17,463 nucleotides of DNA, taken from NCBI GenBank assembly GCA_016840425.1, contig JAEOSI010000022.1, positions 1 to 17,463 of the forward strand, in the 5' to 3' direction. This stretch comes from Candidatus Wukongarchaeum yapensis. Lineage in GTDB: Archaea; Asgardarchaeota; Wukongarchaeia; Wukongarchaeales; Wukongarchaeaceae. Each line of letters begins with the position of its first letter. Position 1 is the first letter of the stretch. The notes below the pieces were generated by a model, which was not told where the DNA came from, searched no databases, and saw only the letters and a list, made by a program, of their open reading frames with translations. This document shows, in pieces, positions 10,548 to 17,463 of this stretch. A program made the position numbers and the translations under genes.

Positions 10548-11438
10548 TCAAACGCCTAAAAGCTGATCCACATAATCGAAGTCTATAGTCTCACCCACGA
10601 TATTACAAAATTTATCAAGGTTTTGCAGCCAAACTTTCCTCACATCATCTAAGTTACTATTGGTTTTTTTGGTGTTTCTTTTTTGTGGGTTGAAACGTGT
10701 TATGTTAAGGGTTATCGAGTCTTCTGCAGGGAGGACAAGGTCTTCTATGTAGGGCACTACGCCTAAAACTCTTTTTTTTGTTCTTTTTTCAAGGTATTTT
10801 ATGCCTGGTTCCAGTATCTTTTGGTCTCCTCTAAACTTGTTAATAATAAAGCCTTTAATGAGCTTCTTTTCCGGATATCTTAACAGTTCTAAGGTTCCAA
10901 TTAAGCCTGCAAAAACACCTCCAGGGTCAATATCCCCAATCATCAAAACGGGAGAGTCGAAGATCTGTGCAACACGCATGTTAGAAATATCACTTTTCAT
11001 TAAGTTTATCTCGCTTGGGGCTCCCGCTCCCTCAATAATTACCATATCATAACGGTTCAACAAATCTTTCAATGCTTCTCTAATGCGAGGAAAACCCTCC
11101 TTTATTGCAAAGTATTTCCGATAATCTGGAAAACTCATATCCTGATAAGGTTTTCCAAAAAGGATAATCTGGACTTTTTCCCCTCCTTTAGGCTTTAAAA
11201 GGATCGGATTCATCATTTCAGCGGGTTCTATGTTACACGCCATGGCTTGAAACGCTTGAGCTACAGCAATTTCTCGACCATTAGCGGTAACAAAAGAGTT
11301 TAGAGAAAGATTTTGTGCTTTAAAAGGAGCAACATTATATCCCATCTTAGAGTAAATCCTGCAAAAAGCAGCTGTAAACAAGCTTTTACCACTATGCGTC
11401 AACGTGCTTTGAAACATTAACGAACAAGCCTTTTCCAT
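10548..11438 (-). CDS. Cobyric acid synthase paralog with synthetase domain only (no glutaminase domain)
   Basis: P-loop STLTHSGKS, PFKAQNLSLNS, NPILLKP, IEGAGAPSEINL, INKFRGD and LPAEDS motifs are present. No GxCGGYQ or GTYLHG motif. The frame is intact at 296 aa. Confidence 0.85.
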   Translation of the reverse strand: MEKACSLMFQSTLTHSGKSLFTAAFCRIYSKMGYNVAPFKAQNLSLNSFVTANGREIAVAQAFQAMACNIEPAEMMNPILLKPKGGEKVQIILFGKPYQDMSFPDYRKYFAIKEGFPRIREALKDLLNRYDMVIIEGAGAPSEINLMKSDISNMRVAQIFDSPVLMIGDIDPGGVFAGLIGTLELLRYPEKKLIKGFIINKFRGDQKILEPGIKYLEKRTKKRVLGVVPYIEDLVLPAEDSITLNITRFNPQKRNTKKTNSNLDDVRKVWLQNLDKFCNIVGETIDFDYVDQLLGV

Positions 11439-11443
11439 TCGCC

Positions 11444-13378
11444 TTAACTCTCCACAAAAGGTAACTCTAAGAAGCGAAAAATTTCCGTCATTCTAACTTT
11501 TTCAGTGACAACTCTTGTCAATCTATCCAAACTTTCCTCTATCACTTCACGCCTAGTAACCGATCTTTCATCAAATTTTTCAACAACTTTTTTCTCTCCC
11601 CTCTTCTTTTTAAGATAGTTAATCAACGGTTTACGTAATCCTGGATAATCAAAAACCCCATGCAAATAAGTACCCAAAACCGTCATCTCCTTATTCAAAG
11701 CCCCTTCTAAACAGTCTACATCATCCTTCCCCCGCTTAAAGATATTAAAAGGCGCTTTCACATCTTTTCCCCTCTCAGTCACCCCCATATGAATCTCATA
11801 TCCAGAAATCCTCCTTCTTTTCTCCAGAAATCCTCCATCAATCACTATCTCGCCCTTAACCTGTGTCGTAACCTTATCATAAACGTCAAAAACTGTCACC
11901 ACATCTAAAAGGCCAAGCCCCTCGTATGTAGCGCCAACATCTCCCTCCAATCCCTTTTCATCCACAATTCTTTTTCCTATTATTTGATAGCCACCACAAA
12001 CACCAATAACAGGAACGCCCTCCGCCGCCATTTTAACTATGGTTGAAGCCAAATCAGTATCCCTCAACCATAAAAGATCTTTAACCGTGTTTTTCGTTCC
12101 AGGAACTATTATGAGGGAAACATCCTCAAGCTCCCTTGGAGAACGAATAAACTTAACGTAGACGTCTTCATGACTCGCTAAAGCATCAAAATCGGTAAAA
12201 TTAGAAATTCTTGGCAGACGAATCACGCCAATTACAACACTCGCGTCTCCCCTCGTCCCTTTATCTTTTATACCCACGGAATCCTCTTCAGGAAGTTGCA
12301 GATCTTCAAGGAAAGGAATGATACCCAAGACCGGAATCCTCGTCCTTATTTTCAACTCCACAATTCCTGGATCAAGATTTTTAGGGTTGCCCCTAAACTT
12401 ATTAATAACAGCACCTTTAACAATCCTTTTTTCCGCTTCTGAAAGTAATAAGAGTGTCCCGTAAAGATACGCGAAAACGCCGCCTCGTTCAATATCTGCC
12501 ACTAAAATCGCTGGAAAGTTCTCCTCTACAGCTATTCTAAGGTTTGAAATATCAAAATCTTTAATGTTAATCTCTGCAGGACTACCAGCTCCCTCGATAA
12601 TTATGATGTCAAATTCTTCCTTAAGTTTTTTAAGCGCTTTTTTAACTACCTCAAAACCTTTACCTGTAGAAAAGTTTGCGTAGTATGATCTACCGTCCAT
12701 GTCAGCATAAGGTTTACCAAGAACAATAACCTGGGACATCATGTCTCCTTTAGGTTTAAGCAGTATGGGATTCATCTCAGCCTGTGGTTCCACTTTTGCA
12801 GCAATAGCCTGAAGCGTTTGCGCCCACGCTATCTCCGCCCCTTCTCTCGTCACAAAAGAGTTCAAACTCATATTCTGCGCCTTAAAAGGTGCAACCCTAA
12901 ACCCAGCATCAGAAAAAATCCTACAAAGAGCCGCTACAAGAAGACTCTTACCCGCGTTAGACGAAGTTCCTACCACCATAAGCAACCTAGCATGGTTATC
13001 TCCCTCAAAATTAATACCCAAAATCTTCCGACGAATTTTAAGAAGCTCTTCACGCGTTAATTTTGCCCCACCTTCCACTTCTCTTACTTCTTTTAAAATG
13101 CGTTCAACAACCTCGGGCTCATGAACCCACCTACACTCTTTACAACTCCACCGCCACTTCCTAGAACGTCTCCCTTTTACCATCATACCTCCCGTATAAG
13201 GATCCATACAAGGATAAAAAGGACAAAAACAAAAAGTACAATCCTGTCCCTCAAAATGACAAGTACTCCCATACTTAAGATAATAGGGGCAATCTACCCT
13301 TATACCCACCGGGGCTTTAATCTCTTTTAAATCGTCCCAGCCTTGATTTTGAGCCTTATGTCCTTTTACATTCATCAA
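11444..13378 (-). CDS. cbiP: Cobyric acid synthase with N-terminal Cys-rich small domain
   Basis: GTSSNAGKS, PFKAQNMSLNS, EGAGSPAEIN, RLPRISNFTDFDAL, GVCGGYQ, GYEIH and GTYLHG motifs. About 125-aa N-terminal extension with 8 Cys. Start is TTG 13378 or ATG 13375. Confidence 0.95.
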   Translation of the reverse strand: MMNVKGHKAQNQGWDDLKEIKAPVGIRVDCPYYLKYGSTCHFEGQDCTFCFCPFYPCMDPYTGGMMVKGRRSRKWRWSCKECRWVHEPEVVERILKEVREVEGGAKLTREELLKIRRKILGINFEGDNHARLLMVVGTSSNAGKSLLVAALCRIFSDAGFRVAPFKAQNMSLNSFVTREGAEIAWAQTLQAIAAKVEPQAEMNPILLKPKGDMMSQVIVLGKPYADMDGRSYYANFSTGKGFEVVKKALKKLKEEFDIIIIEGAGSPAEINIKDFDISNLRIAVEENFPAILVADIERGGVFAYLYGTLLLLSEAEKRIVKGAVINKFRGNPKNLDPGIVELKIRTRIPVLGIIPFLEDLQLPEEDSVGIKDKGTRGDASVVIGVIRLPRISNFTDFDALASHEDVYVKFIRSPRELEDVSLIIVPGTKNTVKDLLWLRDTDLASTIVKMAAEGVPVIGVCGGYQIIGKRIVDEKGLEGDVGATYEGLGLLDVVTVFDVYDKVTTQVKGEIVIDGGFLEKRRRISGYEIHMGVTERGKDVKAPFNIFKRGKDDVDCLEGALNKEMTVLGTYLHGVFDYPGLRKPLINYLKKKRGEKKVVEKFDERSVTRREVIEESLDRLTRVVTEKVRMTEIFRFLELPFVES

Positions 13379-13475: not shown

Positions 13476-13519
13476 TGTATTACGATTGTATTACAGAACA
13501 CAACTTTTAAGTACTAACT
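13476..13519 (+). promoter_or_regulatory. Tandem GTANTAC boxes + BRE/TATA upstream of the trpD-like gene
   Basis: TGTATTAC-GAT-TGTATTAC-AGAACACAAC-TTTTAAGTA; 37/44 identical to 17160-17203. Confidence 0.7.
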
Positions 13520-13601: not shown

Positions 13602-14714
13602 ATGGTTTTTGATGGGTTGATGTTGAAAGATTTTGGTGCTAAGGTGTATAGATTAATAAAGGGTAAAAGCCTCACAAGGGAAGAAGTTAGAGAGATGATG
13701 AAACAAACACTTTTAAACGAACAACCAGATCTCCATCAAGGCGCTTTTCTTGCAGCGATAACAGCGAAAGATTCTACTCCTGAGGAGATTGCTGGTTGTT
13801 GGGAAGCTGTATATGAGTATGATACTGTGAAAGTTACTCCAAATGTTTCAGGACCTTTGGTTGAAAATTGTGGCACGGGAATGGATGACATTAAAACTTT
13901 TAATATTAGTACTGCGGCGGCGGTAGTGGGCGCAGCTGGGGGTGTTTATATGGCTAAACATGGGGCAAGGGCTATAACTTCTAAGTGTGGTGCTGTGGAT
14001 ATAGCAGAAGCTTTGGGTGTAGATGTTGAATGTAATCCCGAGCTTGTGGAGAAGAGTATAGAGAACGCTGGAATCGGGCTCTTTAACGGGATGAGTTTAA
14101 AAATTCATTCAAAAATGGCTAGGATTTTGGCTCAAATCAGGTTTGGTTCAATTTTGAACATTTCAGCATCCCTTGCTAATCCCGCCCTTCCACCCTATGG
14201 AGTGAGGGGGGTTTATTCAAAAGATTTAGTCGTGCTTGTTGCCAAAGCGATGAAAGAGATTGGTTATGAAAGGGCTCTTGTGTTTTGCGGTTTGAATGGT
14301 GATCAGACAAAGGTTATAGACGAGATCTCAATCCTTGGTGAAACTTTTATAGCTGAAATTTCTGAAAAGAACGGAATTGCCACGTATACGGTTACCCCTG
14401 AGGAATTTATGATAAAGCGTTGTGATGAGGGCGCGATACTTTCAACAGGAGATGTGGAAAAAGAGAGTTTAAGTCTTTTAAGGATTTTAAGCGGTAAGGA
14501 TAAGGGACCAAGGTTTGAGATATTATGCCTTAATGTTGCCCCCATACTTTACATAACAGGCAAAGCTAAAAGTCTTGGAGAAGGATATAAGATGGCAAAA
14601 GAGATCATTGATTCTGGAAAAGCGATTGATAAGCTTAGAGAATGGCTAAAAGAGCAAAACAGTGACCCTGATAAAGCTGAGAAAAGGCTTGGAAAATTGT
14701 TAGAAAATGCCTAA
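13602..14714 (+). CDS. Anthranilate phosphoribosyltransferase-like protein (glycosyltransferase family 3), probably not acting on anthranilate
   Basis: ENCGTGMD..TFNIST, AKHGAR, LANPA and DEIS match the TrpD fold. The canonical GTGGD and KHGN motifs are altered, and no trp genes lie nearby. Confidence 0.8.
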   Translation: MVFDGLMLKDFGAKVYRLIKGKSLTREEVREMMKQTLLNEQPDLHQGAFLAAITAKDSTPEEIAGCWEAVYEYDTVKVTPNVSGPLVENCGTGMDDIKTFNISTAAAVVGAAGGVYMAKHGARAITSKCGAVDIAEALGVDVECNPELVEKSIENAGIGLFNGMSLKIHSKMARILAQIRFGSILNISASLANPALPPYGVRGVYSKDLVVLVAKAMKEIGYERALVFCGLNGDQTKVIDEISILGETFIAEISEKNGIATYTVTPEEFMIKRCDEGAILSTGDVEKESLSLLRILSGKDKGPRFEILCLNVAPILYITGKAKSLGEGYKMAKEIIDSGKAIDKLREWLKEQNSDPDKAEKRLGKLLENA

Positions 14715-14890
14715 AAAAAGAAAGAAGGAAAAAACCTCCATGCTCTCTTGAAAATAAGTTTTGTGGAATTTTCCACGCGATTTTATTTTTTTTGCTCTTT
14801 TAATCTCGTTTTTCTTTTTTAGCTCCTTGATTTCGACGCTTTTGCTTTTCTTTCGAGGTAGTTGGCACGACTTTAGAAGGTGACACTTTG

Positions 14891-15943
14891 ATGAAGGCAG
14901 CGATTTTGAAGCGTGTATGCGAGATGAAAGTAATGGAATTTGAGAGGCCTCAAGTTGTTTCTGGTGGTCTTTTAGTCGAGGTTGGCGCGTGTGGGATATG
15001 TCGTACTGATGTTAAAATGTATCACAAGGGTCACAGGGATTTAAAATTGCCTCGTGTCCTCGGTCATGAAGTTAGTGGTACCATTCTGGAGGTTGGGAGA
15101 GAGGTAAAAGAATATTTTGATGTGGATATGCGTGTTCAAATAGCGCCAGGCATTGTTTGCGGCATGTGTCGTTACTGTCTTATGGACGCTCCTAATATGT
15201 GTGATCGTATGCGCATTATTGGATTTCATCTTGATGGAGGGTTTGCGGAATACATATGGGTGCCTCCTAGCGCTATTAGGAGTGGTTGTGTAAATCCCCT
15301 TCCTCCAAGTCTTTCTTTTGAGGTCGCGTCTCTTGTAGAGTTGTTGGCATGTTGCATTAATAGTCAGCGGCTTGCCAGGGTGGGATTAAAGGACGTTGTA
15401 GTGGTTATTGGTTGCGGTCCTGCTGGAGTGTTGCAGGCTAAACTTGCTCGTTTTTTTGGAGCAGAAAGCGTGATAGTTATTGAGAAGGACCCTAAAAGGG
15501 TGGAGATGGCAAAACAGGTTGTTAGAGAAGCTGACATGGTTGTCAACAGTTCTTCTGAAGATCCTTTGGAGGTGGTTGCTTCTGTTACGGATGGTAGAGG
15601 GGCAGATGTAGTTATTATCGCTTGTTCTAATGGTAATGCCCAGCTTCAAGGTTTGGAGATGCTTGCTAAACGTGGGCGTTTAAGCATGTTTAGCGGACTT
15701 CCTTCAGAAACCCCAGTTATCTTGTTGAACAGTAATGAGATTCATTATAAAGAGGCACAAATTATTGGAGCTTATGGTTGTACTTCTTTACAAAATCATC
15801 AAGCTATATGGTTGCTTGGAAGTGAAAAAATAGACGTTTCTGGTTTGATAACTCATCGTTTTAAGCTTGATGATATACTAGAAGGGTTCAAGATCATAGA
15901 AATCAAAAAAGGACTTAAAGCCGTGATTAAAACAAAAAAATAG
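14891..15943 (+). CDS. Zn-dependent medium-chain dehydrogenase (sorbitol/iditol/threonine dehydrogenase-like)
   Basis: Catalytic Zn motifs CGICRTD and LGHE, structural Zn CGMCRYC-x7-C, and NAD-binding IGCGPAG. ATG 14891 follows an in-frame TTG at 14888. Confidence 0.9.
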   Translation: MKAAILKRVCEMKVMEFERPQVVSGGLLVEVGACGICRTDVKMYHKGHRDLKLPRVLGHEVSGTILEVGREVKEYFDVDMRVQIAPGIVCGMCRYCLMDAPNMCDRMRIIGFHLDGGFAEYIWVPPSAIRSGCVNPLPPSLSFEVASLVELLACCINSQRLARVGLKDVVVVIGCGPAGVLQAKLARFFGAESVIVIEKDPKRVEMAKQVVREADMVVNSSSEDPLEVVASVTDGRGADVVIIACSNGNAQLQGLEMLAKRGRLSMFSGLPSETPVILLNSNEIHYKEAQIIGAYGCTSLQNHQAIWLLGSEKIDVSGLITHRFKLDDILEGFKIIEIKKGLKAVIKTKK

Positions 15944-16159: not shown

Positions 16160-17089
16160 GTGGGAACTAAGGTAGTAAACTGTCGTTTACCAGAAAAGAC
16201 CGTAGATGAATTAAACGCTTTTGCTAAACGTTTCAACTTAACTAAATCTAGCATAATAAGACAAGCTTTAATCACTTACATAGAAATGCTAAAAAACGCG
16301 AACCAAATCTTGGTTCCGAATTTTAAGGTTAATCCTTCACAATTAGCAATAAACAGAAGACATAACTGCACTTTTATACGATTCCCAAATAAAATGGTCT
16401 TAGTGTTAGGTTGTATTTCCTCAGGTAGTATCGGGCCTAATTCTATGGATAAATTAAAGGTTAGCGGGTTTCTTCTAGGAAAGTTAACTACTAGGGCCGC
16501 TTTAATGGACATTATATCGATTAATGCTTGGCCAATATCAATTGCAGCAACATTATGTGTGAAAATGGACCCAACAGGATCGGAAATAATAAGGGGAATT
16601 AAAACAGAAATGGTTAGAGCAGATCTAGATCCGTTAATTTTAACCGTAGATACGGAAGAGAATTTTGATACCGAACAAACAGGCATCGGCCTAACTGTTA
16701 TAGGATTAACTCATGAAGAAGATTTGAAAATCGGAACAAGTCAAATAGGTGACGTGATAATAGCTGTAGGAAAACCATGTGTTGGTCAAGAAGTACTAGA
16801 AGCAAAATCACGTAAAGAAATAGCGGATTTAAAAGATATTATAAGCTTTTTGAAGCTTGAGTATGTACATGGAATAATGCCTGTTGATACAGAAGGAATA
16901 CTTAGCAAAGCTAACCTATTAGCTCATTCGATCGGTAAAAATGTAAAGTTCTACGAAAACATCAAATTTGATTTAGAGAAGTCAGCTGGTCCTTCTACAA
17001 CAGTGTTAGTTACGGTCGACAAGAATAAAGTAAAAGAGTTTTTAAAATATTTGTATAAACCTTATTCTCTTATTGGAGAAATCGTCTAA
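16160..17089 (+). CDS. Ribbon-helix-helix DNA-binding domain fused to an alpha-ribazole kinase (CblS)/PurM-like domain; putative transcription factor
   Basis: Residues 1-45 (KVVNCRLPEKTVDELNAFAKRFNLTKSSIIRQAL) follow the CopG/NikR RHH pattern. The remainder has CblS-type motifs MDPTGSEIIRGI, TEENF, QTGIGLTVIG, VGKPCVGQEV and KSAGPSTTVLV. GTG start 7 nt after AGGAGTG. Confidence 0.8.
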   Translation: MGTKVVNCRLPEKTVDELNAFAKRFNLTKSSIIRQALITYIEMLKNANQILVPNFKVNPSQLAINRRHNCTFIRFPNKMVLVLGCISSGSIGPNSMDKLKVSGFLLGKLTTRAALMDIISINAWPISIAATLCVKMDPTGSEIIRGIKTEMVRADLDPLILTVDTEENFDTEQTGIGLTVIGLTHEEDLKIGTSQIGDVIIAVGKPCVGQEVLEAKSRKEIADLKDIISFLKLEYVHGIMPVDTEGILSKANLLAHSIGKNVKFYENIKFDLEKSAGPSTTVLVTVDKNKVKEFLKYLYKPYSLIGEIV

Positions 17090-17158
17090 AACTTTTTTTA
17101 AATTAGCGAAAACGTGCCAAAATAACTTAAAGAACAACGAAACATTTATTCTAAACTT

Positions 17159-17203
17159 CTGTACTACAACTGTAGTACAGAACACAACTTTTAAATATCA
17201 ACT
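17159..17203 (+). promoter_or_regulatory. Tandem GTANTAC boxes (perfect 10-bp inverted repeat) + BRE/TATA upstream of cobT
   Basis: CTGTACTACA-AC-TGTAGTACAG followed by AACACAAC-TTTTAAATA. Confidence 0.72.
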
Positions 17204-17315
17204 CTTAACCTAAGAGCAGAAAAACACTTACTCTACACTTACGTACTACAATATTATTAACCCTACAATGAAAATAACCCTCGATCTGAGCGTATTTTGA
17301 AGGAGGTAAATTTTT

Positions 17316-17463
17316 ATGAAGGACGTAATTTTTGCTCGTGCAAAGGAAAAAGGCGAGGAATTTGTCAGGAAGATAAAGGGTAAAACCCCTGTTTTTGTAT
17401 GCGTTATAGGCAACTCTGAAACAGGAAAAATACCTGGCTTATCCGCTGCAGGCGCAGTTCCAG
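17316..17463 (+). CDS. cobT: Archaeal-type nicotinate-nucleotide:benzimidazole phosphoribosyltransferase, N-terminal 49 aa (runs off window)
   Basis: Manual translation MKDVIFARAKEKGEEFVRKIKGKTPVFVCVIGNSETGKIPGLSAAGAVP. ETxxIPGxSAAGA is the N-terminal signature of the archaeal CobT (MJ1598-type) family. SD AGGAGGT at 17301-17307. Confidence 0.82.
   Translation, partial: MKDVIFARAKEKGEEFVRKIKGKTPVFVCVIGNSETGKIPGLSAAGAVP

Follow-up and report, generated by a model that had tools for sequence, protein, structure and literature searches.

To our knowledge, benzimidazole bases are made by two known routes only, BluB and Bza, and the identity of the lower ligand decides which organisms can use which cobamide. 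The bzaAB/bzaF-cobT-bzaCDE and bluB-cobT operons, whose architectures are said to have been set out by Hazra et al. in 2015 and by Taga et al. in 2007, respectively (both cited in PMC7617358 and PMC8620254), place a riboswitch and accessory enzymes ahead of cobT-cobS. Stand-alone proteins of the TrpD fold that are encoded outside trp operons are represented by the DNA-binding paralogs TrpD2/YbiB. In canonical anthranilate phosphoribosyltransferase (TrpD; EC 2.4.2.18; curated model TIGR01245), a class IV phosphoribosyltransferase (PRT), work on the T. kodakarensis enzyme assigned the GTGGD motif to the loop that binds phosphoribosyl pyrophosphate (PRPP), the HGN of the KHGN motif to PRPP and the Lys of the same motif to anthranilate; it also ascribed anthranilate binding and catalysis to a helix alpha8 Arg (Mtb R193, Sso R164, Tk R159), which it calls essential (PMC5537072). 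Here we analysed a 17,463-nt stretch of Candidatus Wukongarchaeum yapensis DNA (contig JAEOSI010000022.1 of assembly GCA_016840425.1; hereafter the window) that encodes a TrpD-fold paralog of the GTGMD/KHGA type, TrpDL (13602–14714, + strand), followed by a Zn-dependent dehydrogenase of the medium-chain dehydrogenase/reductase (MDR) type (14888–15943, +), within an archaeal tetrapyrrole and cobamide gene cluster. On balance, we favour the reading that TrpDL is a catalytically competent PRT with an acceptor other than anthranilate, and that it forms with the dehydrogenase a two-enzyme module in cobamide nucleotide-loop metabolism, acting at the CobT step or immediately ahead of it.

The TrpDL gene is an intact open reading frame (ORF) that translates into 370 aa with no internal stop. 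Pfam analysis identified Glycos_trans_3N (PF02885) and Glycos_transf_3 (PF00591) domains, which define class IV PRTs (glycosyltransferase family 3), and the protein scores 264.4 bits against TIGR01245, above the cut-off of 199. The best Protein Data Bank (PDB) matches of an AlphaFold2 model (pLDDT 91) are TrpDs, with TM-scores of 0.8–0.85, and all of the top 50 Foldseek matches are TrpD. TrpDL and canonical TrpD are of equal length and share the two-domain fold, about 33–36% identity, the metal-binding DE pair, NxST and the segment KHG/R..S..G..D, which binds phosphate. In contrast, profile scores against the three TrpD2-type models NF006005 (YbiB), NF006564 and NF005635 are far below the cut-offs (21.5, 45.9 and 58 bits versus 185, 257 and 287, respectively), and TrpDL differs from TrpD2/YbiB in keeping the catalytic metal and ribose-phosphate residues. 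Models for NP-II nucleoside and AMP phosphorylases matched with at most 52 bits, against cut-offs of 269–570.

An earlier reading of the window, made from its letters alone (the sequence-only reading), had described TrpDL as keeping GTG, TFNIST and DE while substituting M94 in GTGGD and A122 in KHGN. Translation and alignment showed this to be correct to the residue, the motifs being G91-T92-G93-M94-D95, T99-F100-N101-I102-S103-T104, K119-H120-G121-A122 and D240-E241 in TrpDL numbering. In an alignment of 124 sequences, in which the paralog clade was compared with 72 canonical TrpDs, column 94 is Met in 96% of the paralog clade and Gly in every canonical TrpD (100%), and column 122 is Ala in 92% of the clade and Asn in 100% of canonical TrpDs. 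Further clade-specific columns bear out the accompanying proposal that acceptor-side residues are altered: the paralogs carry a two-residue insertion (N162-G163) that is absent from canonical TrpD, Ser instead of Ala at column 165, Leu instead of Arg (100%) at column 176, Gly instead of Arg (82%) at column 182 and Ser instead of Pro at column 190, with changes of this kind running along the acceptor channel. Apart from the second Arg column (82%), the canonical residues at these clade-separating columns are 99–100% conserved. G91, T92, G93, D95, N101, S103, T104, H120, G121, R123, S127, G130, D133, D240 and E241 are common to both clades.

We infer that TrpDL still uses PRPP, as it retains the metal site (DE), NxST and the 5-phosphate segment. 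Its phosphoribosyl acceptor would be a nucleophile other than anthranilate, given the substitutions at the Asn and Arg columns and the additional polar residues along the acceptor channel. As the published assignment puts GTGGD and HGN at PRPP, both M94 and A122 appear to fall in motifs in contact with PRPP and acceptor alike. The earlier statement that the PRPP site is kept thus stands for NxST, DE and the 5-phosphate segment but not strictly for the signature loop, which is GTGMD and not GTGGD. It thus seems that the acceptor-binding Arg of canonical TrpD, which may be the residue of column 176 or that of column 182, is lost or displaced in TrpDL and that two residues where PRPP and acceptor meet are changed, with the metal and ribose-phosphate contacts kept.

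The sequence-only reading had regarded TrpDL as a paralog, and had suggested both a phylogeny and a search for a canonical trpD elsewhere in the genome. The host genome (2.16 Mb, 92% complete) contains three matches to the trpD model: a canonical trpD on contig C106 (410 bits), TrpDL (264 bits) and a weak match in a 518-aa frame (48 bits). On C106, the canonical gene belongs to a single block, trpD-trpC-trpF-trpB-trpA-trpE. Canonical trpD genes are likewise present in 15 of 16 other carrier genomes (310–447 bits), where the paralog copies score 265–291 bits. Both bands pass the 199-bit cut-off, which accounts for the label "anthranilate phosphoribosyltransferase" on every named database copy of the paralog that we encountered. 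Acceptance by the curated model therefore inflates apparent redundancy in the tryptophan pathway and hides a cobamide gene.

A maximum likelihood tree was constructed from 113 representatives (exhaustive search, 50%-identity representatives), ten family members and the trpD of the same genome. All GTGMD/xHGA sequences fall on one side of a branch with an SH-aLRT support of 99, and the canonical GTGGD/KHGN sequences, including the genome's own trpD, fall on the other side (support 98), so that TrpDL lies outside the canonical clade; a few sister lineages with GTGSD or GTGAD motifs branch just outside the GTGMD clade. A word-indexed search recovered full-length relatives at 58–68% identity from Methanophagales, Methanotrichaceae, Methanosarcinales, Dehalococcoidia, Chloroflexi and Thermodesulfobacteriota. 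Identity within the clade is about 60% between archaeal and bacterial members. Mean column identity across 18 aligned archaeal and bacterial relatives is 71%, and the family is under very strong purifying selection and hence not decaying. For gene neighbourhoods, 80 genome loci were fetched from at least 547 species-level loci and supplemented with three contigs found by identity; ORFs were called and the neighbours clustered. The surroundings of the paralog were free of trp genes in the more than 80 loci examined.

Judged by these comparisons, TrpDL is not the anthranilate PRT of the cell. It is highly improbable that it represents a genuine second isozyme or a decaying duplicate: it does pass the TIGR01245 cut-off (264 versus 199 bits) and carries the corresponding database name, but it has Ala at the Asn of KHGN (100% in canonical TrpDs), Leu at the first Arg column (100%) and Gly at the second (82%), it sits outside both the canonical clade and the trp operons, it shows strong purifying selection, and in the bacterial riboswitch loci described below its regulation is tied to cobalamin and not to tryptophan.

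In the neighbourhood analysis, the dehydrogenase gene (ADH in the gene orders below) adjoins TrpDL in the same direction in 70 loci by ORF calling, and tblastn recovered it in the remaining loci except for two in which the paralog lies at a contig end, which gives 78 of 78 assessable loci. The pairing is therefore obligatory. The order is mostly ADH followed by TrpDL, and it is reversed in the window, in the ANME-1 group of anaerobic methanotrophic (ANME) archaea and in Aquificota. One 732-aa frame (P0122) joins ADH_N/ADH_zinc_N and TrpD domains, and so represents either a fusion of the two proteins or a read-through. A 693-aa open frame also spans the paralog at G173:C237:1795-2901. Searches for longer proteins found no fusion of TrpDL or of the dehydrogenase to CobT, which is weak evidence. 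The pairing also holds in deeper relatives, namely a GTGMD/RHGS lineage and a GTGSD lineage. In the GTGSD sister lineage, the gene order is cobQ(split)-cbiB-ADH-TrpDL (L127:25-4531), and because this lineage has both features, the pairing and the cobamide context predate the GTGMD clade.

The dehydrogenase resembles L-threonine 3-dehydrogenase (Tdh) in its Zn-MDR fold, its two Zn sites and its NAD-type Rossmann motif. Its best PDB matches are archaeal Tdh proteins (E about 1e-39), and the Cys, His and Glu residues of the catalytic and structural Zn sites, together with GxGxxG, are invariant across 21 orthologs. Against the Tdh model TIGR00692, however, it scores 195 bits where the cut-off is 458, and it constitutes a distinct subfamily defined by its linkage to TrpDL. 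No genuine Tdh was found in the host genome, in which this dehydrogenase is the best Tdh-like match at 195 bits.

Cobamide genes are the recurrent context of the pair. Directly preceding the pair in 27 Methanothrix loci is a gene for CobT of the archaeal type (TIGR00303), and the gene for the non-homologous bacterial CobT (DBI_PRT) is adjacent in nine loci from ANME-1, Syntrophoarchaeum, Methanolliviera and Dehalococcoidales. Dehalococcoidia have the order cbiB-cobD-ADH-TrpDL-cobT-cobS-btuFCD, and in Aquificota the pair is embedded among btuF/C/D genes. A full-length cobalamin riboswitch (Rfam, 83–117 bits) is present on the same strand directly upstream of the pair in eight of 12 bacterial loci, and CobS is encoded in all 17 carrier genomes tested. 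Carriers include methanogens, ANME archaea, Asgard archaea, Dehalococcoidia and other anaerobes. The CobT, CobS and CbiB neighbours and the riboswitches confirm the cobamide lower-ligand context proposed by the sequence-only reading. Full-text literature searches found no paper that describes the TrpDL family; a Chlorobium paper merely draws "trpD" and "DH" within a cobalamin region. As a conserved, cobamide-regulated and CobT-linked unit, the pair offers a concrete candidate, amenable to testing, for an additional step or route, and it probably marks an undescribed step in the assembly of B12-type cofactors.

Two minor features were noted among these loci. A gene for a PP-loop ATPase of the Diphthami_syn_2 family (PF01902; neighbour cluster 39) lies no more than a few genes from the pair in five ANME-1 and Dehalococcoidales cobamide loci (L005, L009, L025, L032 and one more). 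On one Dehalococcoidales contig, the cobalamin riboswitch-ADH-TrpDL unit is preceded, at a distance of about 2.4 kb, by a molybdenum/tungsten cofactor riboswitch (L029:6136-6257).

Repression by a riboswitch would, taken alone, also fit genes that are switched off when B12 is available because they encode a B12-independent bypass, as with metE and nrdD, and the non-cobamide context of the pair in Methanomassiliicoccales could point to an unrelated pathway that is simply co-located. We nevertheless regard a non-biosynthetic role of either kind as quite unlikely, given that the pair shares single operons with cobT-cobS and with cbiB-cobD, that it accompanies the archaeal CobT in Methanothrix, and that all carriers tested encode CobS.

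The same loci, together with the Tdh-like partner, bear on one of the two main rivals to our reading, in which the pair would supply the aminopropanol linker. Here the dehydrogenase would oxidise L-threonine to 2-amino-3-oxobutanoate or aminoacetone, on the way to (R)-1-amino-2-propanol or its phosphate for CbiB, and TrpDL would handle or protect the amine. The closest relatives of the dehydrogenase are indeed L-threonine 3-dehydrogenases, and the pair adjoins cbiB and cobD in Dehalococcoidia and cobQ-cbiB in the sister lineage, and is divergent from cobQ in the window. This role is nonetheless unlikely, as the dehydrogenase falls far below the Tdh cut-off (195 versus 458 bits), a PRPP-type transferase has no obvious part in making a phosphate ester, CobT, in two unrelated types, is the specific neighbour that recurs most often, and the Dehalococcoidia loci already contain cobD of the threonine-phosphate decarboxylase type.

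In the mechanism that we favour instead, with moderate confidence, TrpDL would ribosylate an amine or heterocycle other than anthranilate, probably a more polar one, with PRPP, and this ribosylation would be coupled to an NAD(P)-dependent oxidation by the dehydrogenase. The dehydrogenase might either make the acceptor or oxidise the ribosylated product, and the outcome might be a lower-ligand base or a precursor of one, which CobT would then activate; these are the least certain parts of the scheme. The suggestion of the sequence-only reading that an amine precursor of a benzimidazole or another base is ribosylated coincides with this scheme, and such a precursor is a candidate acceptor. As the same reading pointed out, in line with established enzymology, the TrpD fold inverts alpha-PRPP to beta-ribotides, so that TrpDL would be unable to replace CobT directly.

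The inventory of lower-base synthases in carriers is compatible with such a role. BluB was not found above the cut-off in any of 17 carriers, and most carriers have a single ThiC-family gene. In two Dehalococcoidia this single gene is under a thiamine pyrophosphate (TPP) riboswitch, and for this reason it is ThiC and not BzaF. Among these matches, BzaF and ThiC are not told apart by the NCBIfam models, which makes the anticorrelation with BzaF only partly informative. The absence of BluB and the mostly single ThiC leave room for a base-making role of the pair, which occupies the same slot in its operons as the accessory enzymes of the bza and bluB systems. Unlike these systems, the pair consists of unrelated folds with unrelated chemistry, and involves neither a radical S-adenosylmethionine (SAM) enzyme nor a flavin destructase.

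A more specific version of the favoured mechanism, which we put forward as a doubtful though attractive possibility, is that the pair constitutes a missing oxygen- and radical-SAM-independent route to the lower base. Here TrpDL would use PRPP for the N-ribosylation of a diamine-type precursor, and once cyclised, the adduct would be aromatised by the dehydrogenase, whereby C1' of the ribose becomes C2 of the base, much as the ribityl C1' becomes C2 in the BluB reaction. If true, this route could account for ligands of the benzimidazole type that the bza pathway bypasses, such as 5-methylbenzimidazole. Kohler (1988, Arch Microbiol) reportedly found that this base is the main ligand in Methanothrix soehngenii. 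In Methanothrix, the pair lies directly behind cobT.

Several observations weigh against the favoured mechanism. The PRPP signature loop is itself altered from Gly to Met, so that PRPP use by TrpDL is a prediction from the remaining motifs, and R174, an invariant residue of the TrpDL family two positions away from the column of the lost canonical Arg (L176), might stand in for the missing Arg. Methanomassiliicoccales carry the pair among unrelated genes (ferredoxin, BioY, DHPS and LarA-like), and some loci place it beside cobQ or cbiB and not cobT, an arrangement that would also fit a linker role. The distribution is also patchy: only one of 41 genomes sampled from the phylum of the window carries the paralog, and TrpDL is therefore dispensable for cobamide synthesis in general. 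Lastly, the ThiC-like genes of Methanothrix carriers include a second, divergent one that might encode BzaF, and the pair is therefore not simply a BzaF substitute. In two Methanothrix genomes (G044 and G045; loci L097 and L099), this second gene scores 442–445 bits against TIGR00190 (cut-off 460) and lies beside a normal ThiC gene, making it a candidate archaeal BzaF.

BzaF also figures in the other main rival, in which the pair would form phosphoribosylamine, and hence 5-aminoimidazole ribotide (AIR), from PRPP and a threonine-derived enamine or amine, thereby boosting the precursor of the BzaF and ThiC products. This would be a dedicated version of a reported side reaction of TrpD, and the similarity of the partner to a threonine-oxidising enzyme is in keeping with it. 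Such a supply role is nevertheless improbable, as the host genome encodes PurF (494 bits) and a second copy, the pair persists behind a cobalamin riboswitch in carriers that have no BzaF candidate, and the demand for cobamides is tiny compared with purine flux. The related idea that PurF is absent was rejected, as PurF is present in the genome.

The window adds an Asgard archaeal instance to these loci, with regulation that is apparently of a protein type and not of a riboswitch type, and with a neighbouring nicotinate PRTase gene. The window contains no riboswitch. A 44-nt promoter- or operator-like element (13476–13519, +) precedes TrpDL and recurs as a direct repeat upstream of cobT (17160–17203, +); the two copies are 84% identical and contain a repeated TGTAnTAC as well as a TATA-like box, TTTTAA(G/A)TA. 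Between the pair and cobT, a 309-aa protein with an N-terminal ribbon-helix-helix (RHH) domain (16160–17089, +; Pfam RHH_1, residues 9–42) is a candidate regulator, and its orthologs (neighbour cluster 19) are encoded beside TrpDL and CobT in seven loci, including ANME-1 and Methanolliviera. The cobT gene is of the archaeal type and is cut by the contig end, leaving the N-terminus (17316–17462, +; match to TIGR00303, positions 3–33).

The full cobT (367 aa), followed by a nicotinate PRTase gene, was found on contig C203 and on L125, a contiguous 45-kb contig from another assembly that encodes an identical TrpDL protein. This gives the complete order TrpDL-ADH-RHH-cobT-nicotinate PRTase, with cobQ divergent from TrpDL. 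The nicotinate PRTase gene lies directly 3' of cobT (L125:14989-16197; L091:71-1279), matches NF006415 with 502 bits (cut-off 243) and encodes a Cys-rich C-terminal tail. This arrangement suggests that cobT and the nicotinate PRTase form a unit that recycles the nicotinate leaving group. The sequence-only reading had assigned that task to TrpDL, as regeneration of beta-nicotinate mononucleotide (beta-NaMN) from the nicotinate released by CobT, an idea that has in its favour the conserved PRPP-site residues and the 44-nt element shared with cobT. With a nicotinate PRTase encoded directly after cobT in the same locus, and with no role left for the universally linked dehydrogenase, we consider it very unlikely; nicotinate PRTases moreover have a different fold.

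The remaining genes of the window are consistent with a tetrapyrrole and cobamide cluster. The − strand encodes cbiG, cbiF, cbiL and cbiT, and also hemB, a precorrin-2 dehydrogenase, a paralog of the CobQ N-terminal half and cobQ; the + strand encodes a small cbiX, hemA, hemL, hemC, cobA and hemD. The gene for cobyric acid synthase, cobQ (11444–13378, −; NF001989, 584 bits), is transcribed divergently from TrpDL, and the two genes have a 223-nt intergenic region in common. Full-length CobQ has a Cys-rich N-terminal extension of about 130 aa, which Pfam analysis of the identical contig L125 marked as zinc finger-like. It forms a tandem with a second cobQ-like gene, called the upstream one (10548–11438, −; 296 aa), whose product matches the N-terminal ATPase half of CobQ only (model positions 1–247 of 477) and has no glutaminase domain. 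At the other end of the window, contig C203 (L091) repeats positions 16700–17463, covering the C-terminus of the RHH protein and the start of cobT, with a few amino-acid differences, and the assembly break inside cobT is probably due to strain variants. Downstream of the nicotinate PRTase gene, L125:16320-17834 encodes a protein of 504 aa that has no Pfam match, carries a signal peptide and a C-terminal membrane anchor as well as two internally repeated domains, and is probably unrelated.

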